Source: Torpedo marmorata
Lineage: Eukaryota
Length of the DNA: 64,000 nt
Assembly (NCBI GenBank): GCA_977017645.1
Contig: OZ360226.1
Coordinates: 146,754,001 to 146,818,000, forward strand
Direction of reading: 5' to 3'
Program-made: the position numbers and the translations under genes
Shown: one piece after another, positions 6,477 to 55,140 of the stretch
How the letters are laid out: each line of letters opens with the position of its first letter
How positions within the stretch are numbered: the stretch's first letter is position 1
Notes under the pieces: generated by a model
The model's input: only the letters and a program-made list of their open reading frames with translations
The model's database searches: none
What the model was told of the DNA's origin: nothing

Positions 6477-9400
6477 TCAAATCCTCAAACCCATAACCCT
6501 CATGTATGGGCTCCAAATTTTTAAAAATAAATGATATTTATTCCGTAAATTATAGGTAATTTTTTCCAAAGGAATACATGAACGAAGTTCTGCATGCCAT
6601 CTATCTAAATTCAGATCTAAATCTGATTTCCAAGTAATAGCAATACATTTTTTTGAAACCGCTAAAACAATACGTAAAAACTCTACCTGATACATATTCA
6701 ATCTGTTCCTAATACTAAATTTTCTAATATCTCCAAATAAAAATAACATAGGGTCCAATAAAAACCTAACATTGAAAACTCTTTCTAAAAAATCCTTAAC
6801 TTTAAACCAAAAATCTTGAATCTTAGGACATGACCATGTAGAATGAACAAAAGAACCTACTTCATTCTTACATCTAAAACACAAATCTGACAATGCCGGG
6901 TTAAATTTCTTTAATTTTTTTGGTGTTAAGTATAATTGATGAAAAAAATTATATTGTACCAATCTATACCTAACATTAATAACTTTAGTCATACTTAACT
7001 TACATAAATCCTCCCAATGTTTTTGATCTATACTAATATTTAAATCTAATTCCCATCTTAATCTTGATTTATGTAACCCTACTTTAGGCATTTTTTTCTG
7101 AAGTAATTTATACATTTGAGAAATAAACTTATTAATATTTGTTTTAGTAATTAATAATTCCAACTCATTATATCTTGGAGTAATTAAATTATCTCCTAAT
7201 TTCTCAACTAGAAAAGCTTTAATCTGATAATAGACTAACCATGTATTATCTAATATATCAAATTTTTCTTTCAGTCTTTGAAATGTAACAAATCTTCCAG
7301 CTTCAAAACAATCTTTAAAATTTTTAATACCTTTTTGAAACCATATTTTTAATAATTGATTATTCATAGAAAACGGTAAAAGTGGATTTTGATATATTGG
7401 CATATTTAATGAAATCTTACCTTTCCCACCTATTCTTTTATCTACCTCTGTCCATATATCCAATAAATGTTTAATAATCGGTGAATTCTTCTTTTTAACT
7501 GATAATAATTTAGAATTCCACTTATAAATAATATCCTCCTTATAATTTTCTCCGATATTATTTAATTCTATATTAATCCAAGCAGAAGTTTTAACTAAAT
7601 CAAAAAATTCATTAACAAATTTTAATTGAGCTGCATTATAATAATATTGAAAATTAGGGAGTTGCATACCTCCCATCTCATAATTCCATGTTAACTTCTC
7701 CATACTCACTCTTGCTAACTTCCCTTTCCATAAAAATTTCCTAACTATAAATTTTAAATCTTTAAAAAACTTTTTTGGAATTCCAAAAGGAATTGATTGG
7801 AAAAGATATTGAATTCTTGGAAAAATATTCATCTTAATACAGTTTACTCTCCCCATTAAAGTTATAGGTAAATCTTTCCAATTCTCCAAATCTTTCTTTA
7901 TTTTTGTAAGTAAGGGTACATAATTTAATTTATATAAATTCTCTAATTTTGTATCTACTTTTACTCCCAAATATTTAATTCCTTCTTTTGCCCATTTAAA
8001 TTCCGTAACTTCTTTACATCTAGTATAATCACCTTGAGATAAAGCCATTATTTCACTTTTATCCGCATTAATTTTATATCCAGAAATTTCACCATATTCT
8101 GTTAATATAATAGCTAAATGTTGAAGTGATGAAACTGATTTTGTCATATATATTAATACATCATCTGCAAACAAACTAATCTTATGCTCTTCTATACCAA
8201 CTTTAATCCCCACTATATTAGGATCTGTCCTAATCAATTCAGCTACAGGTTCTATTGCCAAAACAAATAAAGCTGGTGATAAGGGACAACCCTGTCTTGT
8301 AGAACGCGTTAAAGAAAATTTTGACGATATTTGTCCATTTGTAATTACTTTAGCTGTAGGTTCCTTATATATAGTTTTAATCCAATTTATAAAAGTATTC
8401 CCAAAACCAAATTTTTCTAATACCTTAAATAAAAAATTCCATTCTAATCTATCAAAAGCCTTTTCTGCATCCAACGTAATCACCAATGGTAAATCTTGTT
8501 TCTTTTTATGAAAATTAATTAAACTTAATAATCTAGCTATATTATCTTTAGAATATCTATTTTTAATAAAACCAGCTTGATCTGAATGTATCAAATTTGG
8601 CAAATATTTAGCTATTCTATTAGCCAAAATTTTTGCCATAATCTTATAATCTACATTTAATAAAGAAATAGGTCTATATGATTCAGTTTTTAATACATCT
8701 CTATCTTTTTTTGGTATAACTGTAATAATAGCATTTAAAAAAGTTTTTGGTAATAAATGAGTTTCCGTAATCTGACTTAATACCTCCATATATAAAGGTA
8801 TCAATAAATCTTTAAATTCTTTATAAAATTCTACTGGAAATCCATCATCACCAGGGGATTTACCACTTTTTAACGTCGATAGTGCTTCATTTACTTCTCT
8901 CATCGTAAAAGGTAAGTCCAAAAATTTTTTATTTTGAACATTCAATTTAGGTAAAGTAATTCTAGATAGAAATCCATTAATTTTTAAATCATCCTGAACT
9001 ACCTGAGATCTATATAAATTCTGATAATAATCTTTAAAAGAATCGTTTATTTCTTTAGGTTTATAAGTTATTTCACCAGTATTTTTTTTTTTTATAGCAT
9101 TTATAGTTTTAGAAACCTGTCCCTTTTTCAATTGCCATGCTAAAACTTTATGAGCCTTTTCTCCTAATTCATAGTATCTTTGTTTCATTTTTTCTATTAA
9201 TTTTTCCGTTTTATACGTTTGTAATAAATTATAATGTAATTTTTTCCTCACCAAACTATTTCTCTTACGAATTGATTTATTCTTCTGTAAATCTTTTTCC
9301 ATAATCTCAATCTCTTTCTCTAAATCTTCTGCTTCTTTCAAATAATCTTGCTTAATTTTTGCCGAATAACTTATTATCAAACCTCTAAGATAAGCCTTTA

Positions 9401-10268
9401 AAGTTTCCCAGATTATAAATTTATCATTAACTGATTGATCATTTATCCTCAAAAATTCTTGAATTTCCTTTCTCATATATTCACAAAAATCTTTCCTTTT
9501 CAATAAAGATGAATCAAATCTCCAATTAAATACAGTTTTCTCTTTTTCCGGAATTGCACATGTCATCAACAAAGGTGAATGATCCGAAATTAATCTTGCT
9601 TTATATGATACCTGTGATATTCTATCTTGAATTTGCGAAGATATCAAAAACAAATCTATCCTAGAATATGAATCATGTCTAAAAGAATAAAAAGAATAAT
9701 CTTTCTCTCTAGGATTCAATTTCCTCCAAATATCTATTAAATTCAAATCTTTCATCAAATTTATAATTCTTTTAACTATTTTAGGCCTAACTGAAGATCT
9801 AGAAGTCCTATCCATTATTGAATCCAGACAACAATTGAAATCCCCCCCAATTAAAATATTATCTTTAGCGTCTGATAAATGTAAAAATACATCTTGAATA
9901 AATTGTTCATCATCTGGATTTGAAACATATACATTCAAAAGTGTCCAAAATTCTGAATAAATCTGACAATTAACTAAAACATATCTACCTGCCACATCTA
10001 TTACTACCGACTGTATTTTAAAAGGTAGTTTTTTATTAACCAAAATTGCAACTCCTCTAGCTTTAGAATTAAATGTTGAAGCTACAACATGTCCAACCCA
10101 GTCTCTTTTTAATTTCTGATGCTCAACCTCTGTTAAATGAGTTTCCTGTAGAAAAGCTATATCTACTTTCAACTTTTTCATGTATGCCAAAGTTCTTTTC
10201 CGCTTTATTGGATTATTAAGCCCATTTATATTCAAACTTACTAAATTTATACTTTTAGAATCCATCAT
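6477..10268 (-). CDS. L1 ORF2p: APE endonuclease, reverse transcriptase, C-terminal CCHC
   Basis: Motifs SLNINGL, FLQETH, GGDFN, SRIDLF, SDHSP (EN); KSPGDDG, YRPISLLN, LDAEKAFD, RQGCPLSP, FADD, YLG (RT); CFRC-H-C. No stops over about 1263 codons; first ATG at 10268. Confidence 0.97.
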   Translation of the reverse strand: MMDSKSINLVSLNINGLNNPIKRKRTLAYMKKLKVDIAFLQETHLTEVEHQKLKRDWVGHVVASTFNSKARGVAILVNKKLPFKIQSVVIDVAGRYVLVNCQIYSEFWTLLNVYVSNPDDEQFIQDVFLHLSDAKDNILIGGDFNCCLDSIMDRTSRSSVRPKIVKRIINLMKDLNLIDIWRKLNPREKDYSFYSFRHDSYSRIDLFLISSQIQDRISQVSYKARLISDHSPLLMTCAIPEKEKTVFNWRFDSSLLKRKDFCEYMRKEIQEFLRINDQSVNDKFIIWETLKAYLRGLIISYSAKIKQDYLKEAEDLEKEIEIMEKDLQKNKSIRKRNSLVRKKLHYNLLQTYKTEKLIEKMKQRYYELGEKAHKVLAWQLKKGQVSKTINAIKKKNTGEITYKPKEINDSFKDYYQNLYRSQVVQDDLKINGFLSRITLPKLNVQNKKFLDLPFTMREVNEALSTLKSGKSPGDDGFPVEFYKEFKDLLIPLYMEVLSQITETHLLPKTFLNAIITVIPKKDRDVLKTESYRPISLLNVDYKIMAKILANRIAKYLPNLIHSDQAGFIKNRYSKDNIARLLSLINFHKKKQDLPLVITLDAEKAFDRLEWNFLFKVLEKFGFGNTFINWIKTIYKEPTAKVITNGQISSKFSLTRSTRQGCPLSPALFVLAIEPVAELIRTDPNIVGIKVGIEEHKISLFADDVLIYMTKSVSSLQHLAIILTEYGEISGYKINADKSEIMALSQGDYTRCKEVTEFKWAKEGIKYLGVKVDTKLENLYKLNYVPLLTKIKKDLENWKDLPITLMGRVNCIKMNIFPRIQYLFQSIPFGIPKKFFKDLKFIVRKFLWKGKLARVSMEKLTWNYEMGGMQLPNFQYYYNAAQLKFVNEFFDLVKTSAWINIELNNIGENYKEDIIYKWNSKLLSVKKKNSPIIKHLLDIWTEVDKRIGGKGKISLNMPIYQNPLLPFSMNNQLLKIWFQKGIKNFKDCFEAGRFVTFQRLKEKFDILDNTWLVYYQIKAFLVEKLGDNLITPRYNELELLITKTNINKFISQMYKLLQKKMPKVGLHKSRLRWELDLNISIDQKHWEDLCKLSMTKVINVRYRLVQYNFFHQLYLTPKKLKKFNPALSDLCFRCKNEVGSFVHSTWSCPKIQDFWFKVKDFLERVFNVRFLLDPMLFLFGDIRKFSIRNRLNMYQVEFLRIVLAVSKKCIAITWKSDLDLNLDRWHAELRSCIPLEKITYNLRNKYHLFLKIWSPYMRVMGLRI

Positions 10269-10516
10269 AACCACATTGTAGTCCTTGTCTATCTATCATG
10301 TCTATTAGCGATTCCCTCCTAAATTGTATCTTAACTATTCTCTCCTCAAATAAAACAGAAAAAAGAAAAAGAAATAGAAAAAACCCTTTAAGAAAAAACA
10401 CAGTTAACACAGTGTTACCCCCCTCCATTGTTCGAGTAGCAGCTCCTGCCGCTAAGGTGGTGATTGGTTTGGAAGAAGTACCAATATCCCCACCCCCCCC
10501 CAATAGATCAATATAA

Positions 10517-13448: not shown

Positions 13449-13699
13449 TGATAGGCCTATCAATAAACACTCGAAGGCTATGAGCGTGAGTGAACCATAG
13501 GCTTTTATTACCTTAGAACTATGCAGTGCTTTCCAGCAGATCTGACCCGGACTGGAGGAGTGGCCGAGATACAGTGGCCTTTATTCAGGTGAGGAAAGGG
13601 GAGGGATTACCTGGACACCCAAGGGAGGGGAGGGAGTAGACATCGGGACAGCCTGCAATACACACCTACACCACAATACATAAACAGTGGTTTACCACA
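13449..13699 (-). repeat. 3' LTR of the Gypsy at 13449-17958
   Basis: Direct repeat of 17708-17958; preceded on the minus strand by PPT AAAAGGAGGGGTGAA. Confidence 0.97.
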
Positions 13700-13788
13700 T
13701 TCACCCCTCCTTTTAAAAGAGTCCAGCGGGGTGACGTGACCACTCTAATTAAATACACAATAAAAGAAATATATGTACAAGTCCTTTT

Positions 13789-16700
13789 TCACAGGTCAAG
13801 GCGATCCGGCGGCCGAATTTGCCGCTGTGACCTGCGTGGTGGCGGGGCGGGTTGTGGTGATGGGGGAGATGGTAGTGATGGGGAAGATGGTAGTGATGAG
13901 GAAGATGGTAAGGTCGTCTGCGCCGTCGCCTCCTGCCTGGCCTCTTGGAATGCCTGTGGTCCCGTCGAGGGGGCTGAGTCTGACACATTGGGTGGGGAGT
14001 TAGAGAGGGGTTGCAGCAATTGGTCTTGCCCGTCGGAGTGTTCTTCCGGTGCCCCATCGGGCGCCAGGTCCCGAATCGAGACCGTGTCCTCACATCCATC
14101 AGGGAAGACCGCGTATGCATATTGGGGGTTGGCGTGTGCCAACTGCACCCTCTGAACTGTCGGCTCATATTTGCTGCTCCGAAGGTGATTGCGGAGCAGC
14201 ACTGGTCCCGGGGACATCAGCCAGGCAGGTAGGGCGGTCCCGGTGGTCGACTTCCTGGGGAAGGAAAAAAATCGTTCATGAGGGGTTGCGTTGGTGGATG
14301 TGCACAGCAGAGACCGGATAGAGTGGAGGGCTTCGGGGAGAACATCCTGCCAGCGGGAGACCGGCCATCCCTTGGACTTGAGAGCCAGGAGCGCGGCCTT
14401 CCATACAGTAGCGTTCTCCCTCTCCACCTGCCCATTTCCCCGGGGGTTGTATCCGGTGGTCCTGCTAGTGGCGATGCCTCGGGCCTGCAGGTACCGTCGC
14501 AGCTCCTCACTCATGAAAGCTGCTCCCCGGTCGCTATGTATGTAGTTTGGGAAACCAAACAGCGCGAATACCTGGTGGAGAGCTTTTATGGTTGAGGTAG
14601 CTGAGGTGTCGGGACAGGGGATGGCAAAGGGGAACCGCGAGTACTCATCAATGATGTTTAAGAAGTACACGTTGCGGTTCGTGGAGGGAAGGGGCCCCTT
14701 GAAGTCAATACTGAGACGTTCAAAGGGGCGAGTGGCTTTGATCAGCTGTGCCCTGTCGGGGCGGTAGAACTGAGGTTTGCACTCCGCGCAAACCCGGCAG
14801 CCTCTGATCAATGTCCTGACCTCTTCCAGGGAGTATGGCAGGTTCTGTGACTTCACGAAGTGAAAGAGCCTGGTAATCCCTGGGTGGCAGAGGACGTCGT
14901 GTAGGGCATGTAATCGGTCGACCTGCGCGCTGGCGCGTGATCCCCGGGATAGAGCGTCCGAGGGCTCATTGAGCTTCCCGGGCCGGTAGAGGATGTCGTA
15001 GTTGTAGGTGGAGAGTTCTATTCTCCACCTCATGATCTTGTCGTTTTTGATCTTACCCCGCTGCTGGTTGTTGAACATAAATGCCACCGAGCGTTGGTCG
15101 GTCAGCAGGGTAAAATGCTTGCCGGCGAGATAGTGCCTGATTGCTTCCACTATGGCCTGGGCTTCTTTCTCTACCGCGGAGTGCCGAATTTCGGGGCCTT
15201 GAAGGGTCCGTGAGAAAAACGCCACCGGCCTTCCCGCCTGGTTGAGGGTAGCAGCCAGCGCGAAGTCCGATGCGTCGCTCTCTACCTGAAAAGGTGTCTC
15301 TTCATCCACTGCGTGCATTGTTGCTCGAGCAATGTCCCCTTTTATAAGGTCAAAGGCCTTACGTGCCTCCGAATCAAGGGGAAATGCGGTGGATTTCACC
15401 AGGGGTCGGGCCTTATCAGCATAATTTGGTACCCACTGCGCATAATATGAGAAGAACCCGAGGCATCGTTTGAGTGCTTTGGGGGTGGGAGGAAGTGGAA
15501 GTTCCAGTAGGGGCCGCATGCGGTCGGGGTCGGGCCCAATCACCCCGTTCTCTACCACATACCCCAAAATAGCGAGGCGTGTGGTACCAAACACACATTT
15601 TTCTTTATTATATGTCAGGTTTAGTGCTTTTGCCGCCTGCAGGAACTTCCGGAGGTTGTTATCGTGATCCTGACGATCCAGCCCACAGATGGTGATATCG
15701 TCCAGGTACGGGAAAGTGGCCTTAAGTCTATACTGGTCCACAATCCTATCCATCTCCCGCTGAAACACAGAAACTCCATTAGTAACCCCGAACGGAACCC
15801 GTAGGAAATGGAACAGTCTCCCATCTGCCTCGAACGCAGTGTACTGTCGGTCTTCCCGTCGGATAGGGAGCTGATGATATGCGGATTTCAGGTCGATAGT
15901 GGAAAAGACCCTGTATTGGGCGATCTGATTAACGATATCCGCTATTCGTGGTAGCGGATATGCGTCCAACTGTGTGAACCGATTAATCGTCTGACTGTAA
16001 TCCACCACCATCCTACTCTTGGCCCCTTTTACTACGACTACCTGTGCCCTCCAGGGACTATTACTCCTCTCAATAATCCCCTCCTGTAATAATCTCTGCA
16101 CCTCCGTCTTGATAAACGCCCTGTCCCCCGAACTGTATCGCCTGCTCTTGGTTGCCACAGGCTTACAGTCAGGGGTCAGGTTGGCGAATAGCGACGGCGG
16201 CGAGATCTTAAGAGTGGAGAGGCCACAGGTAGTTTGGGGCGTATTATTCAGGAACTGGTGGTTTACTACAGTGATCGCAGGGTGGGGACCGTCATAACGC
16301 ATAGTGACACTACGTAAGTGGCTCTGAAAATCGAGTCCTAATAAAACAGGTGCACACAACTGATTCATAATAAATAACGAAAATTGTCGATACTCAGTCC
16401 CTTGTACAACAATATTTGCCACACAAGCCCCCCGGATGTCTGTTGTGTGAGCCCCAGACGCCATGGCCACCCTCTGGCTTACCGGTATGGTAGTGAGGCC
16501 ACAGCGCTGGACAGTGTCCGGGTGGATGAAACTCTCCGTACTGCCCGTATCGAAGAGGCAGGTGGTTTTGTGCCCCTCCACCAGAATGTCCATCATGGAT
16601 TTCGATAGCTGGTGGGGAACACTCTGGTCAAGGGTGACTGATGCAAGTGTTGAGATGTAGTCATCTTGATCCTCTGCTGTTGTCAAAGATAGCCGCTCCC

Positions 16701-16872
16701 GTAGATCGCACATGTCGCTGCTGCTCGCGTTGCAAGATGGCGGCGGTAGTAAGGCCGGAAGTACCGACGCGGACGGTGGCGCCGGAAGTGCCAGCATCAA
16801 AGATGGCCGCCTCCATTCTTCGCACGAGGTCGACGCCGGAAGCGGCAGCAGGTAAGATGGCCGCCCCCGCAG
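13789..16872 (-). CDS. pol: Gypsy pol (protease, RT, RNase H, integrase); same frame as gag, beyond a single TAG
   Basis: LFDTGS (PR), SPWRAQ...YLDD (RT), ESDASD...EKEAQA (RH), H-H-C-C then IDFKGP, HSDRG, GQVEREN (IN). The frame is open from 16872 to the stop at 13789. Confidence 0.93.
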   Translation of the reverse strand: MRGRPSYLLPLPASTSCEEWRRPSLMLALPAPPSASVLPALLPPPSCNASSSDMCDLRERLSLTTAEDQDDYISTLASVTLDQSVPHQLSKSMMDILVEGHKTTCLFDTGSTESFIHPDTVQRCGLTTIPVSQRVAMASGAHTTDIRGACVANIVVQGTEYRQFSLFIMNQLCAPVLLGLDFQSHLRSVTMRYDGPHPAITVVNHQFLNNTPQTTCGLSTLKISPPSLFANLTPDCKPVATKSRRYSSGDRAFIKTEVQRLLQEGIIERSNSPWRAQVVVVKGAKSRMVVDYSQTINRFTQLDAYPLPRIADIVNQIAQYRVFSTIDLKSAYHQLPIRREDRQYTAFEADGRLFHFLRVPFGVTNGVSVFQREMDRIVDQYRLKATFPYLDDITICGLDRQDHDNNLRKFLQAAKALNLTYNKEKCVFGTTRLAILGYVVENGVIGPDPDRMRPLLELPLPPTPKALKRCLGFFSYYAQWVPNYADKARPLVKSTAFPLDSEARKAFDLIKGDIARATMHAVDEETPFQVESDASDFALAATLNQAGRPVAFFSRTLQGPEIRHSAVEKEAQAIVEAIRHYLAGKHFTLLTDQRSVAFMFNNQQRGKIKNDKIMRWRIELSTYNYDILYRPGKLNEPSDALSRGSRASAQVDRLHALHDVLCHPGITRLFHFVKSQNLPYSLEEVRTLIRGCRVCAECKPQFYRPDRAQLIKATRPFERLSIDFKGPLPSTNRNVYFLNIIDEYSRFPFAIPCPDTSATSTIKALHQVFALFGFPNYIHSDRGAAFMSEELRRYLQARGIATSRTTGYNPRGNGQVERENATVWKAALLALKSKGWPVSRWQDVLPEALHSIRSLLCTSTNATPHERFFSFPRKSTTGTALPAWLMSPGPVLLRNHLRSSKYEPTVQRVQLAHANPQYAYAVFPDGCEDTVSIRDLAPDGAPEEHSDGQDQLLQPLSNSPPNVSDSAPSTGPQAFQEARQEATAQTTLPSSSSLPSSPSLPSPPSPQPAPPPRRSQRQIRPPDRLDL

Positions 16873-17683
16873 CTAGCATGCGGCACTGCTCGGGCCCGGG
16901 CGCGACTTGGAGTGGCAGGCCTTCACATAATGGCCTTTCTTGCCGCATCCGGAACAAGTCGCGTCGCGGGCTGGGCAGCGTTTCCTCGGGTGTTTATCGA
17001 GCCCGCAGAAGTAACACTTCTCGGGCTCGCGGTTGACGGCAACGGCGGTGAGGATCGCGGTAGCGATCGGATCACTACCGGCGGCGGCGGCAGTCAGTTC
17101 GTTGGCAGGGCTGGGGGATGGGGATGACCACGTTGCGGGCTGGGGGTCGCGTACCTGCATTGCATCGGAGTTCCGCTGCGCGGACTCCAGCGTGTGGACC
17201 ATCGCTACTGCCCCACGAAAGTCCAGATCGGCGTGCTCCAACAGTCTCTGGCGCACATATACCGACCTGATCCCCATGATGAATGCATCTCTCTCCACCA
17301 CTCCAACGTGTTCCTCAGCCGTTAGGGCTTTACAGTCGCACGCTCGAGCCAGCGACTGTATGTCCCTGACGTACTCCACGGTCGACTCCCCGGCTCGCTG
17401 CTTTCGCGAAAAGAGTCGGTACCTCGCGTAGACCGCGTTGACAGGCGACAATTAAATCTTTTTCAACGCATCCATGGCCTCCGTGTAGGTTCTACAGTCT
17501 CTCACTGTTGTGAAAACCCGAGAGCTCACCCTGGAGATGAGGACTCAGTTGCTGCTCCTCACTATCGGCTTGGACGGTGATCATAAACGATTCCAGACAT
17601 CGTAGCCAGTGTTCGAAGGAGTTACTGGCATCAGGAGCTAGGTGATCGATGTCCAGGCGGTCCGGTCTTAGGGCTCCTTCCAT
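16873..17683 (-). pseudogene. gag: Gypsy gag with two zinc knuckles; one frameshift and two stops
   Basis: ATG at 17683; frameshift near 17545; TAA 17452-17454; CYFCGLDKHPRKRCPARDATCSGCGKKGHYVKAC; TAG 16873-16875. Confidence 0.88.
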
Positions 17684-17707
17684 CAGATTTTACTAAGGTA
17701 ATAAAAT

Positions 17708-17958
17708 TGATAGGCCTATCAATAAACACTCGAAGGCTATGAGCGTGAGTGAACCATAGGCTTTTATTACCTTAGAACTATGCAGTGCTTTCCAGCAGAA
17801 CTGACCCGGACTGGAGGAGTGGCCGAGATACAGTGGCCTTTATTCAGGTGAGGAAAGGGGAGGGATTACCTGGACACCCAAGGGAGGGGAGGGAGTAGAC
17901 ATCGGGACAGCCTGCAATACACACCTACACCACAATACATAAACAGTGGTTTACCACA
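17708..17958 (-). repeat. 5' LTR of the Gypsy at 13449-17958
   Basis: TGTGG...TATCA; followed by ATTTTATTACCTTAG rather than a TGG-type PBS. Confidence 0.97.
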
Positions 17959-23690: not shown

Positions 23691-25573
23691 CCGTATATTT
23701 CGGCGTATAAGTCGACTCGCAGATAAGTCGACCCCCCCTTTTTCAGCCTCAATGGTTTTATTGTATATCCGGCGTATAAGTCGACCCCCAAAAAATCGAG
23801 ATGCTGAGCGTTGACTGGCGTATAAGTCGACCCCCAAAAATCGCGATGATTGAGCTGCTGGGCATTGACCAGCGTATAGGTCAACCCACAACGATCGCGA
23901 TGATTGAGCTGCTGGGCGTTGGCTGGAGGTGATTGTTATCATGGAGGCTCAATTGAAACGACGAAAGTATGAGGCGAGTTTTAAATTAAAAGTGATAGAA
24001 ATGGCCAAGAAAACCAACAACTGTGCTGCTGTTAGAAAATTTGATATATATGAGAAGTTGGTAAGAGATTGGAGGAAGAAAGAGATACTTTAAGAAAAAT
24101 ACCAAAAAGGCAATGTTCGATGAGAAGAGGAATCATTCGTTGGCCAGAGTTGGAAAATCATGTTGCAGCATGGGTACGTGAACAGAGGCAAGATTGCTAC
24201 ATAGTCACCCGAAATAAAATAAGAACATTTGCACTGAAGTGGGCAAAGTCGCACCCAGAACTCAGTAATGATTTTGAAACTACAGTAGGCTGGTGCAACC
24301 GTTTCATGAACAGGAAAAATCTGGTATTACGACAAAAAACAAAAATTGCTCAGAAACTACCAAAAGATCTTGATCATAAAGTTATAAGTTTTCACCAGTT
24401 TATTTTACGTAACTGGCAGAAACACAATTTTGCATTGGCAAATATTGGAAACATGGACGAAACCCCCATGAATTTTGACATGATAGGCAATAGAACAGTG
24501 GAATGTAAAGGTGTGAAAACTGTCCAAACCATGAGTACAGGCCATGAAAGGACCAGGTTTACCGTGGTGTTATCGTGCATGGCCAACGGGACAAAGTTAA
24601 GACCCATGGTAATCTTCAAACGTAAATTTAAACCTAAAATAAAATTCCCTGCGGGTATTTTTGTACATTTTCATGAAAAAGGATGGATGGATGAAAATGG
24701 TGTAAAACTATGGATGGACAATGTGTGGAACAGGCGACCAGGCGGTTTACGCAAGGAACGGAGTTTGCTGGTCTGGGATATGTTTCGTAGCCACTTAACT
24801 GAGAACACTAAAAGTAGATTAGCACAACATAATACTTACGTGGCGGTTATCCCGGGTGGTTTGACGTCTATATTGCAACCTCTCGATGTCTGCTTGAACA
24901 AGCCATTCAAAGACCATGTGCGTGAAGAGTGGAATACATGGATGTCGAGTGCAGAAAATCATTTACAAAAGGCGGGGCAATGCGTGCTGCATCGCTTGAT
25001 GTGCTGTGTTACTTCATGCTCAAGGCATGGGACAAAGTGAAAGTAGAGACTATAATAAAATTGTTTAAAAAGTGCGGTATCTCTTGTGCAATTGATGGTA
25101 CGGAAGATGATTTATTATGGGACACTGACGACGAAGCTGAAGCCGCCTCATCAGATACAGACTGCGACCCGTACGATGACTGTTTAAACAGTGAGACCCC
25201 GGATGTGCTTGCCAAGATCTTTGCCTCAGACGATGATAGCGAATGTGATTTTGAAGGGTTCTAAATGTCTTGTTGTTTTCAATAAAAATGTCAATGAAAA
25301 TTTGTTGCAGTCGGATTTTTTTTGGTTTGTCAAGGGTCGACTTATACGCCGAATCGGGTTTTCAAGGGTCGACTTATGCGCCAAATCGGGTTTTCAAGGG
25401 CCGACTTATACGCCGAATCGGGTTTTCAAGGGTCGACATACGCCGAATCGGCGTGGACTGGTTTTTGAGCTGATTTTAAGGTCTAAAAAGTATATCCGGC
25501 GTATAAGTCGACCCCCGTTTTTTGAGAGATTTTTGAGGGTTTCAAGACTCGACTTATACGCCGAAATATACAG
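23691..25573 (+). mobile_element. pogo-family (DD35D, POGK/Passer-like) DNA transposon, full length
   Basis: TIR CCGTATATTTCGGCGTATAAGTCGA and its complement; TA on both sides; repeated subterminal GCGTATAAGTCGAC motifs. Confidence 0.95.
23941..25264 (+). pseudogene. pogo transposase (Brinker-type DBD, CENP-B HTH, DDE_1), two frameshifts
   Basis: MEAQLKRRKYEASFKLKVI...VRDWRK; GWCNRFMNR; NMDET, VWDMF and QPLDV with 35 residues between the 2nd and 3rd D; frameshifts near 24080 and 24957. Confidence 0.92.
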
Positions 25574-28480: not shown

Positions 28481-29277
28481 GATCTCAAACAATATCGAGT
28501 TGTGGTGCTGAAGGTGATGGAAGAGTGCTCAGGATGAAGATGAGTAAGTTGATGTTTCAGTTGAGTGGGTTAGCTCAAACTGAACTTTTAAACTCCATCT
28601 TAATGAGAAAAATGGCACACCTTCATACAATGTTAAATCATTAGACTCAAATGCACCTCTGAGTCTTGTACATCTATGTTTGCCTCCAATGCAAAGTGAA
28701 TATAAACCAAAAAAATCAGGGCTCCAGCAATAGCCAATCGCCAAGGGTACTTCTCCATCTCTTTGCCCCACACTCCTCCTGAAAGATGCTCTTTGTTCAA
28801 ATTTTTGGTCATCTCCCCAACCAGAAGTGGCAATAATTGAACAACTTCTGATGTGCCCAGATAACCAATCCTGAAAAATCTGCCTTAAACAATCAGACAT
28901 TGAGTCGCAGGAAGAAGTTGTGTACCGACGACTTGCTTTCCTGTCAAAACCATCCTTACTGCTATTATTTCAGTAATGTTGTGGTGCGGGAAAGGACTTA
29001 ATTTGCTAGCCTTCAACTCAACCATGGTAAAATCCAAAAGGTAGATTAAAATTGTTTTCAAAGAAGATTTTTATCTTGAGGAGAGGATGAAAATGAATCG
29101 ATGATCAATTCAAGTCACGCTGTCTTTGTCGAACACCTGAAAAATAGTTAAATTTGTTCTCTCTTGGTCTGATACAGTGATAGATCATGAGGAAGAGAAG
29201 AAAATATATTTAGATTTTTTTGCTGTAATGAAAGATGGAAGATATGAGCTTAAAGTTGGATTACAATTGTGCCTGGC

Positions 29278-29501
29278 TGTGGTGGAACGCGGTACTGCGG
29301 GCATGTCCTCACTGGCTCACTGGGCTAACCTGTAGCCCCTCCCCATCACATTCCCTAATAAAGGCTGAGAGCCCTAGTCTCCTCCCCTATACCTGCCTTG
29401 GACGTGAGCCAGCAGCATGTAGAGGCATGCTCGAACTTTCAGGTTAATAAAGCATTTGATCACTTTCTTCGTGTCTGTGAGTGGTCATTGATCGCGCTAC
29501 A
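29278..29501 (+). repeat. 5' LTR of the Gypsy at 29278-39079
   Basis: TGTGG...CTACA; repeated at 38886 with indels. Confidence 0.93.
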
Positions 29502-29528
29502 ATTTATTAATCCGAATTTTAAAGTGCC

Positions 29529-32500
29529 ATGGAGAAGGCAATCAGACTGGAGAAGCTGGAGATCGATCCGAAGGAACCAGAGGCCTCCGTAAAGTTCGAT
29601 ATATGGCTACACTGCTTGAAGGCCTACCTGAGGCGCCACAACATCACAACCAATCCTGATAAGTACGATCTGCTCTTCGCAGCGGTGGGCCACCGAGCGT
29701 ACCAAATAATTCGAGACTGTACTGAATACGAAGGGGCAATGGCCCTACTCAGACAGCAATATGGAGCCCCGATGAACGCCATGTATGCGCGCTTCCAGCT
29801 GGGCTCCCGACGCCAGGGCCCCGGTGAGTCGGTAGACGAGTTCGTGAGGGCCATGCGGGAGCTGGGACGTGAATGCGGCGCTCTACCAGGAGGAGCTCCC
29901 AGCACATAAGGGAACGACTCCTGGAGGAAAGAGATCGGTCCCTATAGGTAGTGGTGCAGATGGCCCGAGCGATGGAGACAACCCAAAAGAATACGGAGGC
30001 CAACTAAGTGGGCCATGCGGCCACCAGGTGGGGAGAACGGGCGGCGCCATCTTGGGACTCGGGGCCCCTGACTGCAGCTGCCACCGCTGACCACATGAGG
30101 TGCAACTACTGCGGCCAAAGTAAACACCCGCGGAAGTACTGTCCGGCCCGTAGTGCGACCTGCTCAAACTGCCAGAGGAAAGGACACTATGGCAGGGTAT
30201 GTCGCTCCAAGCCCCACTCCAGCAGTGCCGCATGCGGACCGTGACTCTCGTCGCCATCTTGAGCCCACCCACTTCCGCCGTCATTTCCGGTTACCGAGAA
30301 CCGAACTTCCGGACCAGGGGCGCAGTGACAAGGACTGATGTCACTTCTTGCTTCTTCTGCTTGAGATCCATGGGGGCGGCCATCTTCACGATCTTCCGGG
30401 CGGCCATCTTGGCGGCAGCCGATCCGACATAGCAGCAGCGACTCGGACAGTGAGCTGACGCTGGCGTCCATCGTGCTGGACCAAGGTAGACCACAACAGC
30501 TGGGGCGATCGATGATGGACGTTGAGGTAAACGGTCACTCCACTGGCTGCCTGTTCGACACGGGAAGCACTGAGAGCTTCATACACCCAGGCACGGCCGA
30601 GCGTTATTCCCTGACTGTATCCCCAGCCAAAGGAAAGGTAGCACTCGCCTCCAAATCCCTCTTTGCGGAAATCTGCGGAAGCTGTACCGTAACCCTAACC
30701 GTGAGGGGCACGAATTATAAGAGCTTTAAACTGCTGGTAATGCCCCATCTCTGTGCACCCGTCATATTGGGGCTAGATTTCCAGTGCCAGTTTAAAGGAG
30801 TGCTGATGCAGTTTGACGGGCCCCACCCCCCACTCACCGTCAATAATAACCAGAAAATTCACTAAAATGGAGGTGGAGCGGCTGCGGGTGGAGGGCATTA
30901 TAGAACTAAGTAATAGTCCCTGGAGGGCGCAAATAGTGGTGGTGAAGAGTGGGGAGAAACATCGGATGGTCATTGATTACAGTCAGACCATCAACCGGTT
31001 CACCTTACTGGATGCCTACCCTTTGCCCCCCCATTCCCCAGAGCAGACCCAATCACACGATTGAAAGCCGGGCTGGCCAATCGACCTGCGGACTAACCAC
31101 CCTCCGGGTCCCTCCGCCCCCACTGTTCCAAAACCTCACCCCGGACTGTAAACCAATTGCCAATAAGAGCAGGCGATACAGCCCCGGGGACAGAAAATTC
31201 ACTAAAATGGAGGTGGAGCGGCTGCGGGAGGAGGGCATTATAGAACCAAGTAATAGTCCCTGGAGGGCGCAAATAGTGGTGGTGAAGAGTGGGGAGAAAC
31301 ATCGGATGGTCATTGATTACAGTCAGACCATCAACCGGTTCACCTTACTGGATGCCTACCCTTTGCCCCGCATATCGGATATGGTGAATGAGATCGCCAA
31401 GTATAGGGTCTTCTCTACCATACACCTAAAAACGGCGTACCACCAAATCCCGATTCGCCCAAAAGGCATTTGAGGCCAACGGCCGACTCTACCATTTCCT
31501 GCGGGTCCCATTCGGCCTTACGCATGGGGTGTCAATGTTCCAAAGGGAAATGGACCGCATGGTGGATGACAAACTAAAGGCGATGTTTCCATACCTGGAC
31601 AATGTCACCATCTGCGGCCATGACTAGAAGGAACATGACGAGAACCTGCAGAGGTTCCAGGCCACCGCAAAGGCACTCAATCTCACATACAATGTGAAAA
31701 AATGTGTCTTTAGCACCAAGAGGCTGGCAATCCTGGGGTACGAGGTGGAGCATGGGGCTATCGCCCCCAACCCCGAGCGCATACGCTCCCTTCTGGAATT
31801 ACCCCTACCACAGAACCCCAAGGCTTTAAAAAGGTGCCAGGGGCTCTTCTCCTATTATGCCCAGTGGATCCCTAACTATGCAGACAAGGCCCAAACTCTA
31901 GTGAAAACCACTACCTTTCCCCCATCGGCAGAGGCCCGTAAGGCCTTCGAGGGCATCAGAGGCGAGATTGCCAAGGCGGGAATGCACGCCGTTGATGAAT
32001 TCGTCTCCTTCCAAGTGGAAAGTGATGCCTCCGACTTCGCCCTGGCCGCCACACTGAACCAAGCAGGCAGGCCAGTGGCATTTTTTTCCTGCACTCTCCA
32101 AGGCCCCGAACGCAGACACTCCGCCATCGAAAAGGAAGCACATGCCATCGTGGAGGCACTACTTGGCCGGCAGACCATTCACCCTGCTGACGGACCAGAG
32201 AGCCATCGCTTTTATGTTTAACAATAAGCAGCGGGGTAAAATCAAAAATGACAAAATCATGAGGTGGAGAATTGAGCTGTCCACCTACAATTATGAAATA
32301 TGGTACCAGCTGGGTAAATTCAACGAGCCACCCGATGCCCTGTCCAGAGGAACCTGCGCCAGGGTGCAAGTTGATCGCCTCCAGGCCCTCCACGATAGCC
32401 TCTGCCACCCAGGGGCACTAGGCTCTACCATTTTGTGAGAGCGCGTAACCTCCCCTACTCAGTGGAGGAAGTCAGAAAGCTGACTCGCAATTACCTGGTC

Positions 32501-33350
32501 TGTGCAGAATGCAAACAGACCGGAGAGAGCCCAACTCATCAAAGCCACTCGCCCCTTCGAACGTCTCAGCATGGACTTCAAGGAGCCCCTCCCGTCCACG
32601 AATCGGAACTCCTACTTCCTGAACATCGTGGACGAGTACTCAAGTTTCCCGTTCGCCATCCCCTGCCCGGATATGACCACATCCACGGTCATTAAAACAC
32701 TCCGCACAGTATTCACTCTGTTCGGATACCCCAGTTACGTTCATAGTGACTGGGGATCTGCCTTCATAAGTGAGGAGTTGCGGCAATACTTCCTTTCAAG
32801 GGACATAGCTACGAGCAGAACCACCAGCTACAACCCCCGCGGGAACGGGAAGGTGGAAAGGGAGAATGGTACGATCTGGAGGGCAGTCCTTTTGGCCCTC
32901 AAGTCGAAAGGAATGTCCGTATCCCAGTGGCAAGAGGTCCTCCCAGAAGCGCTGCATGCCACCAGGTCCCTACTCTTCACGGCCACGAATGCTACGCCCC
33001 ATGAAAAATTGTTCTCCTTCCCTAGGAGGTCGGCGTCGGGAACCACGCTGCCGGTCTGGCTGACGACCCCAGGGCCGGTGCTTCTCCGGAAGCATGTTAG
33101 GACGCATAAGGCGGACCCACTGGTCGAGTAAGTGCATCTTTTGCACGCGAACCCCCAGTATGCGCTGGTCAGGTACCCGGACGACGGGACGATACAGTGT
33201 CCATCTGGGTCCTGGAGCGAGCGGGGGCCCCGGCACAGGAGGTGCACCCGATATCCCCAGTCGGCCCCAGGGATCACTCTGACAAATGAAGTAGGGATCC
33301 CACCCCTAAGATGGCCCCCCAAGTGTCCCCCCCACTTGTGTGTTCCCTGC
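29529..33350 (+). pseudogene. Gypsy gag-pol, multiply frameshifted (C-terminal tail resumes at about 38640-38823)
   Basis: MEKAIRLEKLEIDP..., CNYCGQSKHPRKYCPARSATCSNCQRKGHYGRVC, LFDTGS, SPWRAQ, ESDASD, HSDWG, GKVEREN; tail LRRSQRQIKPPEQLNL* matches the other copies. Confidence 0.9.
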
Positions 33351-33365: not shown

Positions 33366-36300
33366 TAATATTTTATTTAAAATTTTTAAATCACAAAATA
33401 CATAAATTAAAATATGAAATTATCAAAATATTTGTGATACATTTTCACCCCCCTCCCCCCTCCCCAACCCTCCCAACCCCACTAATCTAATAAAAATAAA
33501 AATATAAAATAAAAATAGAAAAAGAAGAAGAAAAAGAAAGAAAAAGATAGAGTAAGGAGAATGCCAATCTAAAAAAAAACATACATCTATAAACTAATTA
33601 TATTATGGAGGTCAAGTATGCCAGTAGATCCGATATCCAGAGATCTTCAAATCCTTAAACCAACAACTTTCATATATGGGCTCCAAATTTTTAAGAAAAA
33701 ATGATACTTGTTACTTAAATTATAAGTAATTTTTTCAAGTGGTATACACGAACGAAGTTCTGCATGCCATCTTTCTAATCCTAAATCTAAATCAGATTTC
33801 CAAGTAATAGCAATACATTTCTTTGAAACAGCTAAAGCAATTCGCAAAAATTCTATTTGATACATGTTTAATTTCATCTTGATACTAAATTTTCTAATAT
33901 CTCCGAACAAAAATATCATAGGATCCATTGGAAATGTAATCTTAAATACTTTATCTAAAAAATTTTTAACTTTCAACCAAAAATCATAAACTTTTGGACA
34001 AAACCATGTAGAATGTACAAAAGAACCTTCCTCTTTATTACATCTAAAACATAAACCTGATAATGTCGGATTAAATTTCTTTAGTTTTTTAGGTGTTAAA
34101 TATAATTGATGAAAAAAATTGTATTGTACTAATCTATATCTAACATTAATAATCTTCGTCATACTTAATTTACATAATTCTTTCCAATGATTTTCATCTA
34201 TTATTACATTCAAATCTAATTCCCATTTTAATCTTGATTTATGAATTCCTACTTTAGGAATTTTCCTCTGAAACAATTTATACATTTGAGAAATAAATTT
34301 ATTGACGTCTCCTTTAGTAACTAATAATTCTAATTCATTCTGTCTTGGTAAAATCAAAGCATAACCTAATTTCTCAATCAGAAAAGCTCTAATTTGATAA
34401 TAAGCAAAAAGTGTATTATCTAATATATTAAATTTATCTTTCATTCTTTAAAAAGTAATAAATTTCCCAGCTTCAAAACAATCATTTATTTTCTTAATTC
34501 CCTTTTGAAACCAAATTTTAAATAATTGATTATTAATAGTAAATGGAATAAGTCCATTTTGATATAAAGGCATCCTTGAAGAAATCAATCCTTTTCCTCT
34601 TATTTCCTTATCCGTCTTATTCCATATTTCTAACAAATGTTTAAGAATAGGAGAATTTTTCTTTCTTGTTGATATTAGTTTAGAATCCCATTTATAAATA
34701 ACTTCTTCTTTGGAATCTTCTCCTATATTATTTTAATCCAAGCAGAAGATTTAGTTGAATCAAAAAATTCATTAACAAATTTTAACTGAGCTGCTTTATA
34801 ATAATTTTGGAAATTAGGAAGTTGTAAATCACCCATTTCATAATTCCAAGTTAATTTTTCCATACCTACTCTTGCTAACTTTCCTTTCCATAAAAATTTT
34901 CTAATAATTGAATTCAAATCTTTAAAAAAATTTTGAGGAATTTCATAAGGAATTGATTGAAAAAGATATTGAATTCTTGGAAAAACATTCATTTTAATAC
35001 AATTTACTCTTCCCATTAAAGTTATAGGTAAATCTTTCCAATTTTCTAAATCTTTCTTTATTTTCACAAATAATGGTAAATAATTTAATTTATATAAATT
35101 AGCCAATTTTGTGTCAACCCTTATTCCCAAATATTTAATTCCTTCCTTTGCCCATTTAAATTGTGTAATTTCTTTACATCTACTATAATCCCCTTGTGAT
35201 AATGCCATAATTTCACTTTTATCAGAATTAATTTTATATCCAGATCTTTCCCCATATTCTCTCAATAACACAGACAATTGTACTAAAGATGTAGTAGATT
35301 TTGTCATATATATCAATACATCATCTGCAAATAAACTAATTTTATGTTCTTCCATTCCAACTTTAATACCAACTATTTTAGGATCTTTTCTAACTAATTC
35401 TGCCAAAGGTTCTATCGCCAAAATAAATAATGCTGGTGACAAAGGACATCCTTGTCTAGTAGATCGAGTCAAAGGAAATTTTGAAGAAATTTGTCCATTT
35501 GTAACTACTTTAGCAGATGGTTCTTTATATATAGTTTTAATCCAATTAATAAATGTACTTCCAAAACCAAATTTCTCCAATACCTTAAATAAAAAATTCC
35601 ACTCTAATCTATCAAAAGCCTTTTCGGCGTCTAAAGTTAAAACTAATGGTAAATCTTCCTTCTATTTATGTAGATTAATTAAACTAATTAATCTAGCTAT
35701 ATTATCTTTTGAATATCTATTTTTAATAAATCCAGCTTGATCTACATTATAATCTACATTTAATAATGAAATAGGTCTATAACCATATAACCATATAACC
35801 ATATAACAATTACAGCACGGAAACAGGCCATTAGGCCCTTCCAGTCCGCACCGAACCAAACATTCCTATCTAGTCCCACCTACCTGCACCCTGCCCATAA
35901 CCCTCCACTTCCTTCTCATCCATATACTTGTCCAACTTTTTCTTAAATAATAAAATTGACTCTGCCGCCACTACTTCTCCCGGAAGCTCATTCCACACCG
36001 CTACCACTCTCTGAGTAAAGAAGTTCCCCCTCATGTTACCTCTAAACCTCTGCCCCTTAATTCTTAGCTCATGTCCTCTTGTTTCAATCTCTCCTGTTCT
36101 TAATGGAAATAGTCTATCCACATCCACTCTGTCTATCCCCTTCATAATTTTAAATACCTCTATCAAATCCCCTCTCAACCTTCTATGCTCCAAAGAATAA
36201 AGACCTAATCTGCTCAATCTCTCCTTGTACTCTAGATTCTTAAACCCAGGCAACATTCTAGTAAACCTTCTCTGCACTCTCTCCACCTTGTTGATATCCT

Positions 36301-38639
36301 TCCTATAATTTGGCGACCAGAACTGCACACAGAACTCTAAATTAGGCCGCACCAAAGCCTTATATAATCTCAACATCACTTCCCAACTCCTATATTCTAT
36401 GCAATGATTGATAAAGGCCAGCATACTAAAAGCCTTCTTCACCACCCTGTTCACATGAGTTTCCACCTTCAGGGAACGATGCACCGTTATTCCTAAATCT
36501 TTCTGCTCTTCTGTATTCATCAATGCTCTCCCATTTACTACATATGTCCTGTTCTGATTCTTCCTACCAAAATGAAGCACCTCACACTTATCAGCATTAA
36601 ACTCCATCTGCCATTTTTCAGCCCACTTTTCTAAGCAGCCCAAATCCCTCTGCAATCCTTGAAAACCTTCTTCATTATCCACTATTCCACCTATCTTAGT
36701 ATCATCTGCATATTTACTAATCCAGTTTACCACCCCATCATCTAGATCATTGATATATATAACGAACAACAACGGGCCCAATACAGATCCCTGAGGCACA
36801 CCGCTGGTCACCGGTCTCCAACCTGACAGACAATTATCCACTACCACTCTCTGGCCTCTCCCTTCCAGCCAATGTTCAATCCATTTGACTATCTCAGAAT
36901 TTATACCTAAAGACTGCACCTTCCTAACTAACCTTCCATGCGGAACCTTATCGAAGGCCTTACTGAAGTCCATATAGACAACATCCACCGCGCTACCCTC
37001 ATCCACATTCCTAGTCACCTCTTCAAAAATTCAATCAGATTGGTCAAACAGGACCTTCCGCTCACAAATCCGTGTTGAGAGTTCCTGATCAGACCCTGTC
37101 TATCCAGATATTTATAAGTACTATCTCTGAGAACTTTCTCCATTAATTTACCTACCACAGACGTCAAACTTACAGGCCGATAATTGCCAGGCTTCCTCCT
37201 TGAACCCTTTTTAAATAGCGGAACCACATGCGCAATACGCCAATCCTCCGGCACTATCCCCATCTCTAATGACATTTGGAAAATCACCGTCAGAGCCTCT
37301 GCTATTTCTTCGCTTACTTCTCTCAAGGGCCTGGGGAAGATCCCGTCGGGTCCCGGAGACTTATCCACCTTTATATGCCTCAAAAGCCCTAACACTACAT
37401 CTTTCGTAATCCCTATATTCTCCATATTTACCCAATTTGCTTTTTTTATCTGGCATATCTCAATATCCTTCTCCTTGGTGAATACCGAAGAAAAGAAACT
37501 GTTCAATATCTCCCCCATTTCTCTAGGCTCCACACACAGTTTTCCGCTCTGATTCTCTAAGGGACCAATTTTGTCCCTCGCTTTCCTTTTACCATTAACG
37601 TATTTGTAAAAACCTTTTGAATTAATTTTCACCCTGCTTGCTATAGTCTCTTCATACCTTCTTTTAGCTTTCCTAATTCCTCTCTTAAGATTCTTTTTAC
37701 ATTCAATGTATTTTTCAAACATCTCCTTTCCATGCTTCTTATACTTAATGTACGCCTCCCTTTTTTTTCGAACCAAGTTTCCAATATTCCTCGAAAAACC
37801 ACGGCTCTCTCAAACCTTTTGCCCCTCCTTTTAACCTAACAGGAACATAAAGCTTTTGCACTCTCAAAATCTGATCTTTAAAAGACTTCCATCTCTCTAC
37901 TACATCCTGCCCATAAAACAAAGATTCAGTTTTCAATACATCTCTATCTTTCTTTGGTATAACTGTAATTATTGCATTTAAGAAAGTATCTGGTAATGAG
38001 TGGGTTTTCGAAATTTGATTCAATACATCCATATATGGAGGTATTAATAAATCTTTAAACTCTTTGTAAAATTCTGATGGAAATCCATCTTCACCTGGAG
38101 ATTTACCACTCTTTAAAGAAGTAAGAACTTCATTAACTTCCCTCATTGAGAAAGGTAAATCTAAAGATTCTCTACTTTGAGTATTCAATTTAGGTAATAT
38201 AATTTTAGATAAAAATCTAGTAATTTTAGAATCATCTTGATCAATCTGAGATTTATATAAATTCAAATAATAATCTTTAAAAGAATCATTTATTTCTCGA
38301 GGTTTATAAGTTATTTCTCTAGAGTTCTTTTTCCTTATAGCATTTATAGTTCTAGAAGTTTGATCTTTTTTTAATTGCCATGCCAAAACTTTATGAGCTC
38401 TTTCCCCTAACTCATAGTATCTTTGTTTAGTTCTTTCAATTAATTTTTCCATTTTATATGTTTGTAATAAATTGTAATGTAATTTCTTCCCAATTAAATT
38501 GTTCCTTTTTTGAACTGATCTGTTTTTTTGTAAATCTTTTTCCAAACACTCAATCTCCTTCTCTAAATTTTCTACTTCCCTAAGATAATCTTTCTTAATT
38601 TTTGCTGAATAACTTATTATTTGTCCTCTTAAATAAGCT
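33366..38639 (-). mobile_element. 5'-truncated L1 (ORF2 pseudogene) inserted in the Gypsy integrase tail
   Basis: ORFs 33647-34444, 34723-35580 and 37745-38671 match L1 ORF2; 3' UTR matches 1190-1450. Confidence 0.93.
35779..37921 (-). mobile_element. 5'-truncated CR1 LINE inserted in the L1
   Basis: RT ORFs 37015-37776 and 35870-37018 (KSPGPDG, MDFSKAFDKV, GVPQGSVLGP, YADD); (TATATGGT)n tail; splits the L1 at KTES/YRPIS. Confidence 0.95.
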
Positions 38640-38885
38640 GTTCCCCCCACTCTTACAAACAAATTCACCACCCCCTATGGACCCGGGACACACTGAAACA
38701 GTTCAGCCCTCCAACAGCCAGCAGGTCGAACACAACACCGCTCAGCTAGTTCCAAAGATACAGCCAGTAGTACTTCGGAGATCTCAGCGCCAAATAAAAC
38801 CACCGGAGCAGCTGAACCTATGAACTGTATGGACATTGCCCTGCTTCACCCCGCCGGACTTCATTAAAAAAAAAGGAGGGGTGAA

Positions 38886-39079
38886 TGTGGTGGAACAACG
38901 GTACTGCGGGCATGTCTGGGCATGTCCTCACTGGCTCACTGGGCTAACCTGTAGCCCCTCCCCATCACATCCCCTAATAAAGGCTGAGAGCCCTAGTCTC
39001 CTCCTTGCTTGGACTTTCAGATTAATAAAGCCTTTGATTACTTTCTTCGTGTCTGTGAGTGGTTATTGATAGCGCTACA
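38886..39079 (+). repeat. 3' LTR of the Gypsy at 29278-39079
   Basis: Matches the 5' LTR apart from a 10-bp duplication and a deletion of about 40 bp. Confidence 0.92.
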
Positions 39080-39835
39080 ATGGCATGATCCGATTAATTT
39101 GAGCAAGGGCATAATAGAATTAACTGGTGCTTTTAAAGTATGTTCTGACAGGCAATATTAGTTCATTAGGCCTTTACTATTACTGCGTCCATCACAATCC
39201 ACTTGCAGGAGTCACTTCCCATTTTATCAGTGAGACTTCAAATGAAGTTGAAACACTGATTCTTACAGGGCATGTCTGCAGCTCTACAGATGAGTGGTCG
39301 ATCATATTGACGCAGACTGGGAAATGTTAAGTCGGGATCAAATTACCTGTTCAGAGGAGTTGACCACTTTGTCTTTGCGTTTTTTAAAAAAAAGAATCTA
39401 CATGTCATGCAAATTTCTCCTTTTTTTAAAAAAAATCCAGGGAAGTGTGAAATTGGTTGCTGAGACTCTCAATGGCCCTGTGGGAATTTGTCTTTCAGGT
39501 TTTAAAACCAAGTCAGTGAGTGAGAAAGCTAATGGTCGATCTGATCATCTCAGGTTTCGGTGGGAGAGTTAGATAAAAAGTGCAGCCACCTTATCAAAAT
39601 TACAATGGTTTGCATCATTTTACAGGTTAGTAGTGGAATAGTAACTGAAAGATGATATGTTTTGCGTCAAATTATTTTTCTACAAGTTGCACTGCATTTT
39701 AAAGCACAAAGAAACATCCAAAATTTTCAATATAATTTCAATATGTGACTTGGTGATGGCACACTGCAATCTCAGAGAATCTTCCTAAAAGCGTCAGAGA
39801 TGGTGTTTGGCAAATCAAAACCTGTAACGGACTTT

Positions 39836-54782: not shown

Positions 54783-55140
54783 CGGCCCACAAAGTTGTGC
54801 CGAACATGTCACTACTCTAGGAATTGATAGACTTACTTATATCCCTCTACCTATCCAAAAGTCTCTTAAAAGTCCCTATAGAATCCGCCTCCACCACCGT
54901 TGCCGGCAACTCATTCCACGCACCCACCACTCTCTGCGTAAAAAACGTACCTCTGACATTTCCTCTGTACCTTCTTCCCAACACCTTAAACCTGTGTCGC
55001 CTTGTAGCAACCATTTCGACCCTGGAAAAAAGCCTCTGACTGTCTACATGATCAAAGCCCCTTATCATCTTAAACACCTTAATCGTGTCCCCTCTCATCC
55101 TCCTTTGTTCCAAGGAGAAAAGGCCAAGTTCCCTCAACCT
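54783..55140 (-). mobile_element. CR1 3'-end fragment
   Basis: RLRELGLFSLEQRRMRGD...FFTQRVVGAWNELP. Confidence 0.85.

Follow-up and report, generated by a model that had tools for sequence, protein, structure and literature searches.

Candidate long self-primers ending at the poly(A) signal in a clade of animal Gypsy retrotransposons outside the chromoviruses

The start of minus-strand DNA in LTR retrotransposons is set by the base that follows the LTR end, and the primer must anneal there. Self-priming has been proven for Tf1 and is treated as a mark of the Tf1/sushi elements; non-chromoviral Gypsy elements are described as tRNA-primed. The articles cited here by accession number are represented by excerpts, and these describe the Tf1 primer as the 11 bases at the start of the element's RNA, released by RNase H (PMC7175516). 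In plants, self-primers have been predicted for Tcn1 (gypsy) and TAR (copia) from at least 10 bp of complementarity located 0-5 nt after the 5' LTR, and the same excerpt lists non-chromoviruses with tRNA primers (PMC6317226). Mosquito Mag elements are reported with primer-binding sites for tRNA-Leu, tRNA-Ser or tRNA-Arg (PMC3286476), and the Cigr-1 clade is named in its excerpt without sequence features (PMC6238403); further literature on the known systems was consulted in the same form (PMC4600332, PMC5341516, PMC2864245, PMC6934838, PMC2774666, PMC5443660). Among the full-text articles covered by our search, a scope outside which subscription journals and Repbase lie, we found neither a description of self-priming in an animal non-chromoviral Gypsy clade nor one of a primer that ends at a poly(A) signal. 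Notes in Repbase are said to mention self-primed Gypsy families in aquatic animals.

Here we analyze a Gypsy element, referred to as family 2, that lies in a window of 64,000 nt (the whole stretch of DNA studied) of the 6.2-Gb Torpedo marmorata genome. The element possesses the hallmarks of Ty3/Gypsy retrotransposons (LTRs of the TG..CA type, a polypurine tract, and the order protease, RT, RNase H, integrase; Table 1), and its best solved relative is Ty3 Gag-Pol (E 3e-64). It is flanked by a 5-bp target duplication with one mismatch (CTGGC at 29273-29277 and ATGGC at 39080-39084). A family-1 element with LTRs at 17708-17958 and 13449-13699 is present on the minus strand, and its arm and leader likewise pair, in letters unlike those of family 2. 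Since the pol segments of the two families are 53-78% identical and their gag sequences 42-44%, they can be regarded as divergent members of one clade. The family-1 element (13449-17958) is young, with LTRs that are 99.6% identical and the target duplication AGAAC; it possesses an open pol frame of 1,027 codons, yet several stops in gag. A third clade member, represented by its 3' LTR and integrase end, occupies positions 62867-64000 of the minus strand, and its arm reads ...TATTAAAGCC. Other residents of the window are a transposase ORF of the Tc5/pogo type (24054-25040, plus strand; DDE_1, HTH_Tnp_Tc5), an open LINE ORF2 of 1,271 codons encoding endonuclease and RT (6477-10292, minus strand), to which copies within the family-2 element and around 55,000-57,500 are related, and two arrays of one 32-bp unit that are 30.6 kb apart (25298-25453 and 55962-56117). 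No tRNA gene was found in the window, and an Rfam search returned one chance match (E 0.45).

Table 1. Features of the family-2 element and of the family-1 pairing partners, in window coordinates (a slash marks the predicted cut)
Feature	Position	Strand	Remark
5' LTR of family-2 Gypsy element	29278..29501	+	224 nt, TG..CA
TATA-like box AATAAAGG, predicted promoter	29357..29364	+	about 32 nt ahead of the initiator-like motif in fish families
Initiator-like motif CTATACC	29387..29393	+	RNA start predicted at A 29389, 63 nt ahead of the end of the arm
Arm, proposed primer's annealing 3' end	29438..29451	+	ends with poly(A) hexamer AATAAA, 29446-29451
Predicted cut site AATAAA/GC	29451..29452	+	from aberrant junctions; ..AA/RC kept in most relatives
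51-nt loop: remaining R, U5 and 1-nt spacer	29452..29502	+	predicted length of minus strong-stop DNA
Spacer A	29502	+	between LTR end and leader
Leader TTTATTAATCCGAA	29503..29516	+	primer-binding-site slot, complementary to arm
gag start	29529..29909	+	broken copy; 126 codons until the frame ends
Fragmented pol: protease, RT, RNase H, integrase	30431..33182	+	53-78% identity to family-1 pol by segment
LINE nested inside family-2 element	33584..38674, approximate ends	-	repeats common with the endonuclease-RT ORF at 6477-10292
Polypurine tract	38866..38881	+	
3' LTR of family-2 element	38886..39079	+	without 41 nt around initiator; arm at 39016-39029
Family-1 arm CTAAGGTAATAAAA	17762..17775	-	in 5' LTR 17708-17958; 14/14 Watson-Crick
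Family-1 leader TTTTATTACCTTAG	17693..17706	-	behind 1-nt spacer

The first-pass annotation of this DNA had described the leader (29503-29516) as pairing at 13 of 14 positions with the segment 29438-29451 of the 5' LTR, and our analysis bears out both the coordinates and the count: 12 Watson-Crick pairs, one G-U pair and one A-C mismatch. With the arm of the 3' LTR, for which pairing had also been proposed, the leader forms 13 Watson-Crick pairs and one A-C mismatch. A shuffle estimate of the chance of such a match had been suggested; when the LTR was dinucleotide-shuffled 20,000 times, 13 of 14 pairs (at any position, G-U allowed) turned up in 28 shuffles and 12 Watson-Crick pairs in 2. The A-C mismatch proved to be copy-specific, for C is found at that leader position only in the window copy among 116 family copies; its G-U pair is equally private to it. 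A perfect TTCAGATT/AATCTGAA pair is present in 14 of the 28 nearest copies parsed. Nor does the family consensus carry a primer-binding site of the TGG type, which would have spoken against the annotation: the LTR end is followed by TGGCA, the one 5-mer used for this comparison, at three places genome-wide (one of them the window element's own 3' flank) versus 2,401 TTTATT junctions. By contrast, the near-palindrome noted at the end of U5 (ATTGATAGCGCTACAAT) is present in the 3' LTR but is a variant of this copy; most family-2 copies read ATTGATCGCGCTACAAT, a weaker hairpin. The predicted fold of the window copy is no better than that of shuffled sequences (z -0.48), and six other copies gave z-scores of -1.3 to -3.6. 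Two positions of the pairing covary between family-2 subfamilies (116 copies), one of them being T-A in 57 copies, C-G in 39, C-A in 10, T-G in 6 and other in 4, and the second T-A in 80, A-T in 23, A-A in 5, T-T in 5 and other in 3.

The pairing extends well beyond this family. The family-2 junction pattern matches 2,401 places in the genome and a pattern for the sister families 33,804, with no match to the reversed control in either case. The stem is mostly 12-14 bp long and ends sharply (50 junctions). Positions 7-12 from its inner end had been left free by the search pattern; in 36 distinct arm/leader types, a set from which L043, L093 and L103 were left out (not a 5' junction, or arm or leader deleted), these positions comprise 210 Watson-Crick pairs, 1 G-U pair and 5 mismatches (216 pairs), compared to a mean of 120 and a maximum of 142 Watson-Crick pairs in 2,000 permutations of the leaders. 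Metagenomes yielded 80 loci that were found by protein and not by pattern, and 27 of these, the subset with a gag start and upstream DNA (2 of 29 were dropped for too little of the latter), were inspected; some of them repeat one family or sample series (L109/L111/L116, L159/L161, L160/L162). A perfect stem of 10-18 bp that starts at most 2 nt from a CA is present in 20 of the 27, and a TTT leader of this kind recurs in most of the other seven, together with a mutation or an absent arm. Over positions 7-12, 12 metagenome loci gave 70 Watson-Crick pairs out of 72 versus a permuted mean of 45. The arm ends in a poly(A) hexamer in all 36 fish arm types; at least five relatives (L105, L108, L110, L179, L184) keep the stem and the AAA/RC junction with an arm that contains neither AATAAA nor ATTAAA. 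The closest named proteins over the RT-RNase H region come from rays and sharks (80-85%), followed by those of a nematode, cnidarians and a damselfly (59-66%). The pairing marks a large Gypsy clade without chromodomain; it is real and general, and very likely has a function.

In the sister families (L055-L104), the LTR end forms a hairpin of 7-9 bp that overlaps the spacer and the base that opens the leader (the sequence ATTGATAGGCCTATCAAT is perfectly palindromic); this hairpin competes with a helix using the GCCT that follows the predicted cut and might be a switch between the states before and after cutting. A looser junction pattern (32,171 matches) was discarded, as most of the matches listed belong to an unrelated palindromic repeat. 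This very abundant near-palindrome of about 79 bp (AATAAATTGT...ACAATTTATT; e.g., L031-L033, L035) resembles a MITE or one end of a DNA transposon.

Since the slot behind the LTR end reads TTT instead of TGG and differs between families in step with the arm, no one tRNA fits it, and as it is filled by the complement of the arm, priming by any tRNA should be precluded. We consider it likely that the leader is the primer-binding site and that this Gypsy clade primes itself with about the first 63 bases of its RNA, only the last 14 of which would be annealed. The fish families possess the TATA-like sequence about 32 nt before an initiator-like motif, which is mostly YCAGTY (CTATACC in family 2), and this spacing is constant while the distance to the arm's end ranges from 53 to about 75 nt. 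The RNA of the window copy is predicted to start at 29389, and the arm is predicted to lie 40-60 nt inside the transcript. A fall in depth after 29458 in X1, one of three contig sets compared and one whose RNA origin is a guess, was not counted as evidence. In the mechanism that we propose, the arm would anneal to the leader in cis across the loop; this complementarity is observed, and a second helix within the loop (29452..29502) that adjoins the cut is suggested by fold prediction. A cut after AATAAA, placed there by the aberrant junctions considered below, would free a 3'-OH, and the cutting enzyme may be the RNase H of the element, as in Tf1. The 51-nt minus strong-stop DNA would then be transferred via an R remnant of about 19-20 nt, if the single copy that carries an A tail (19 nt after the hexamer, the one match of a search for poly(A)-tailed copies) marks the poly(A) site. 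When the primer's last 14 bases are copied during plus-strand synthesis, the leader would be regenerated together with any arm mutations, and overshoots of such copying are seen. Hiding of the 5' poly(A) signal may come as an additional advantage.

These considerations bear on the earlier proposal that structure, and not sequence, is under selection. The pairing is indeed conserved, far beyond the two families that had been compared, but selection probably accounts for this only in part. With the arm as primer, the leader would be recopied from it in each cycle and compensation would be partly mechanical; the near-absence of G-U pairs (1 of 216) fits such templated recopying, and the strict Watson-Crick covariation would then require no repeated selection for compensatory changes. 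Compensatory change is thus probably templated rather than purely selected. The linkage between arm and leader in family 2 (r 0.71-0.76) is no higher than that between arm and gag, and rare arm variants were mirrored in the leader in 1 of 10 cases, at a site picked after inspection.

The position of the primer ends may be read from aberrant integrated copies. The logic of the fossil INTERMEDIATES is that occasional plus-strand overcopying of the primer should leave the LTR end followed by A and the complement of the arm and of upstream R. A pattern search detected 76 family-2 copies in which the LTR end and A are followed by the reverse complement of the arm and upstream R, and a search with the mirror pattern gave 0 matches. 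Inspection of all 76 revealed that the inverted copy reaches the first base of the LTR in 39, with four extending into the polypurine tract. The 37 partial copies, most of which then jump into plus-sense internal sequence, end at 18-42 nt (22 copies), 43-56 nt (none), 57-65 nt (8 copies) or within the next 119 nt (7 copies); the start of 63 nt had been predicted before these ends were counted. A second pattern, for families with a start predicted at 53 nt, gave 94 matches, 70 of which were inspected, and true partial copies number 20 in this hand-curated set, 8 of them stopping at 48-55 nt (11 of 31 apparent partial ends were dropped because the copy runs past a truncated yardstick). The cluster of ends moves with the predicted start between the two family sets, as assessed with hand-set windows and uniform nulls. 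Because the 39 full-length inverted copies contain U3, which is absent from a primer that starts at 29389, an extra hop to a template in a 3' LTR would be needed for them, as well as selection for integrase-ready ends.

At 37 family-2 loci, the plus-sense U5 piece borders on sequence unrelated to it, for the most part inverted internal sequence. Ten of the 35 independent junctions (two duplicates were dropped) lie within -1..+2 of AATAAA/GCC, and none near the predicted RNA start (p ~3e-7 for this pile-up versus a uniform null, with a hand-set window). The signal is weaker in the second set, which has 7 of 31 junctions within -1..+4, comprising 2 mis-scored inversions, 3 with AAAA microhomology and 2 that are unambiguous. 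The pile-up at AATAAA/GCC is the expected end of strong-stop DNA, should the RNA be cut at this boundary or the arm itself act as primer. At L340, one of the partial inverted copies, the whole 51-nt extra copy is inserted directly ahead of the normal post-leader sequence. Flipping of host DNA between inverted arms was dismissed as the chief origin of the aberrant copies, its mirror product being absent; only L292 is flip-like. About half of the aberrant copies (L275-L351) are integrated with an inverted LTR, the U3 end serving as right-hand end. In the locus pairs L320/L321, L330/L331 and L327/L328 the aberrant junction occurs twice, 2.5-4 kb apart, as if recopied, and at least six copies (L289, L299, L327, L328, L339, L342) share the same short-homology jump from an over-long primer copy into gag.

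Part of these data could also be accommodated if the primer were the 3' copy of the arm, either at the genomic RNA's own 3' end or on a second packaged RNA, and not the capped 5' end. All of U3 would then be available to the 39 full-length inverted copies and to the four that continue into the polypurine tract, the 7 partial copies ending beyond the predicted start would be accounted for, and alleles of arm and leader are mixed both ways (16 of 112, 10 of 113). Such priming nevertheless seems unlikely to us, given that two sets of different spacing each have their ends concentrated at the predicted RNA start and that the strong-stop junctions pile up at the boundary of the arm instead of the RNA start, which points to the template's own arm as the primer. 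Even less probable is that the RNA begins at the first base of the arm, as in a classical Tf1-type arrangement with a primer of just 12-14 nt. The sharp stop of the pairing at 12-14 bp would suit this arrangement, and many families display an initiator-like YCATTC or TAGTT just upstream of the arm; however, there is no TATA-like box 30 nt before the arm, whereas one lies 32 nt before the upstream initiator, and the aberrant copies pass the arm and stop at that initiator. We regard this arrangement as very improbable.

The stem might instead serve only to hide the 5' poly(A) signal, with another primer in use and the aberrant copies arising as fold-back errors on the hairpin. The leader exists only after the 5' LTR, the hexamer ends the arm in every fish type, and the tailed copy makes a working signal likely, all of which would be in keeping with masking. 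The beginning of the arm's complement 1 nt past the LTR end leaves no site for another primer, though, and the retention of stem and AAA/RC junction in at least five relatives whose arm is devoid of a canonical hexamer argues against masking as the core purpose. Moreover, G-U pairs would be expected in a selected RNA stem (1 of 216 here), and fold-back of DNA should also yield the mirror product, for which there was no match, and would have no reason to stop at the RNA start. We therefore give masking as the sole function very little credence. The reading that we prefer remains priming by a long 5' segment of the element's own RNA.

We are inclined to think, with some reservation, that an animal Gypsy clade unrelated to the chromoviruses has come to self-priming independently, with a long capped primer that would be cut exactly at the poly(A) signal. 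Were this true, it would represent a separate route to self-priming with a different geometry, in a clade that has over 30,000 junction copies within a single vertebrate genome and to which annotated proteins of rays, sharks, cnidarians, an insect and a nematode are related. Cutting once would then yield the primer and at the same time rid the template of its 5' poly(A) signal, and failed intermediates of reverse transcription, fixed in the genome, would indicate to the base where the RNA starts, where it is cut and how long the strong-stop DNA is. Self-primed elements would presumably evade silencing by tRNA fragments, and annotation that relies on tRNAs would miss them; other predicted self-primers can be tested in the same way, by primer ends read from aberrant integrated copies.

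The poly(A) hairpin of HIV-1 holds AAUAAA in a stem near the 5' end of an RNA that is primed by tRNA, within the R region present at both ends. The hexamer of the elements studied here likewise lies in a stem near the 5' end, but unlike in HIV-1 its stem partner is the primer site. The short element, the 5-bp target duplication and, in relatives, one continuous gag-pol ORF (about 1,200 aa) resemble the Mag lineage, CsRN1 and Cigr-1, and size and knuckle recall Cigr-1 of Ciona; a double CCHC knuckle in gag is present in 71 of 82 relatives. The CsRN1 clade is marked by a CHCC gag motif, which occurs in 0 of 82 relatives. The LTR start TGTGGT resembles the motif TGTGGYG given for CsRN1 in the excerpt consulted (PMC3601003). 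In place of a Mag-type site for tRNA-Leu, tRNA-Ser or tRNA-Arg, the leader starts with TTT and varies with the arm. Tcn1 and TAR share with this clade a predicted LTR-complementary slot, in other lineages and other hosts (PMC6317226, in excerpt). The primer site is complementary to the element's own LTR, as in Tf1 and Tf2 of Schizosaccharomyces pombe and the Tf1/sushi chromoviruses, and Tf1 also provides the precedent for cutting at the annealed part's 3' end and for a second helix beside the central duplex, both of which are predictions in our case (PMC7175516 and PMC10085805, as excerpted). Like the Tf1/sushi elements, this clade has a primer site matching its own LTR and no tRNA site. Of the three duplexes of the Tf1 'pretzel', most folds contain the central duplex and one adjoining helix, and none a duplex between U5 and the sequence behind the primer site. 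Unlike in Tf1, the annealed part is predicted 40-60 nt inside R and ends at the poly(A) hexamer, with a primer of 53-75 nt; the annealed bases would not be the first of the RNA, as its start is placed 53-63 nt before the arm's end. A chromodomain was found in 0 of 25 relatives and GP[YF] within the last 200 aa in 0 of 82, which also sets them apart from Tf1/sushi. By its predicted primer, the clade would function like Tf1 but falls outside the Tf1/sushi group on the chromodomain and, indirectly, on the position of the primer.
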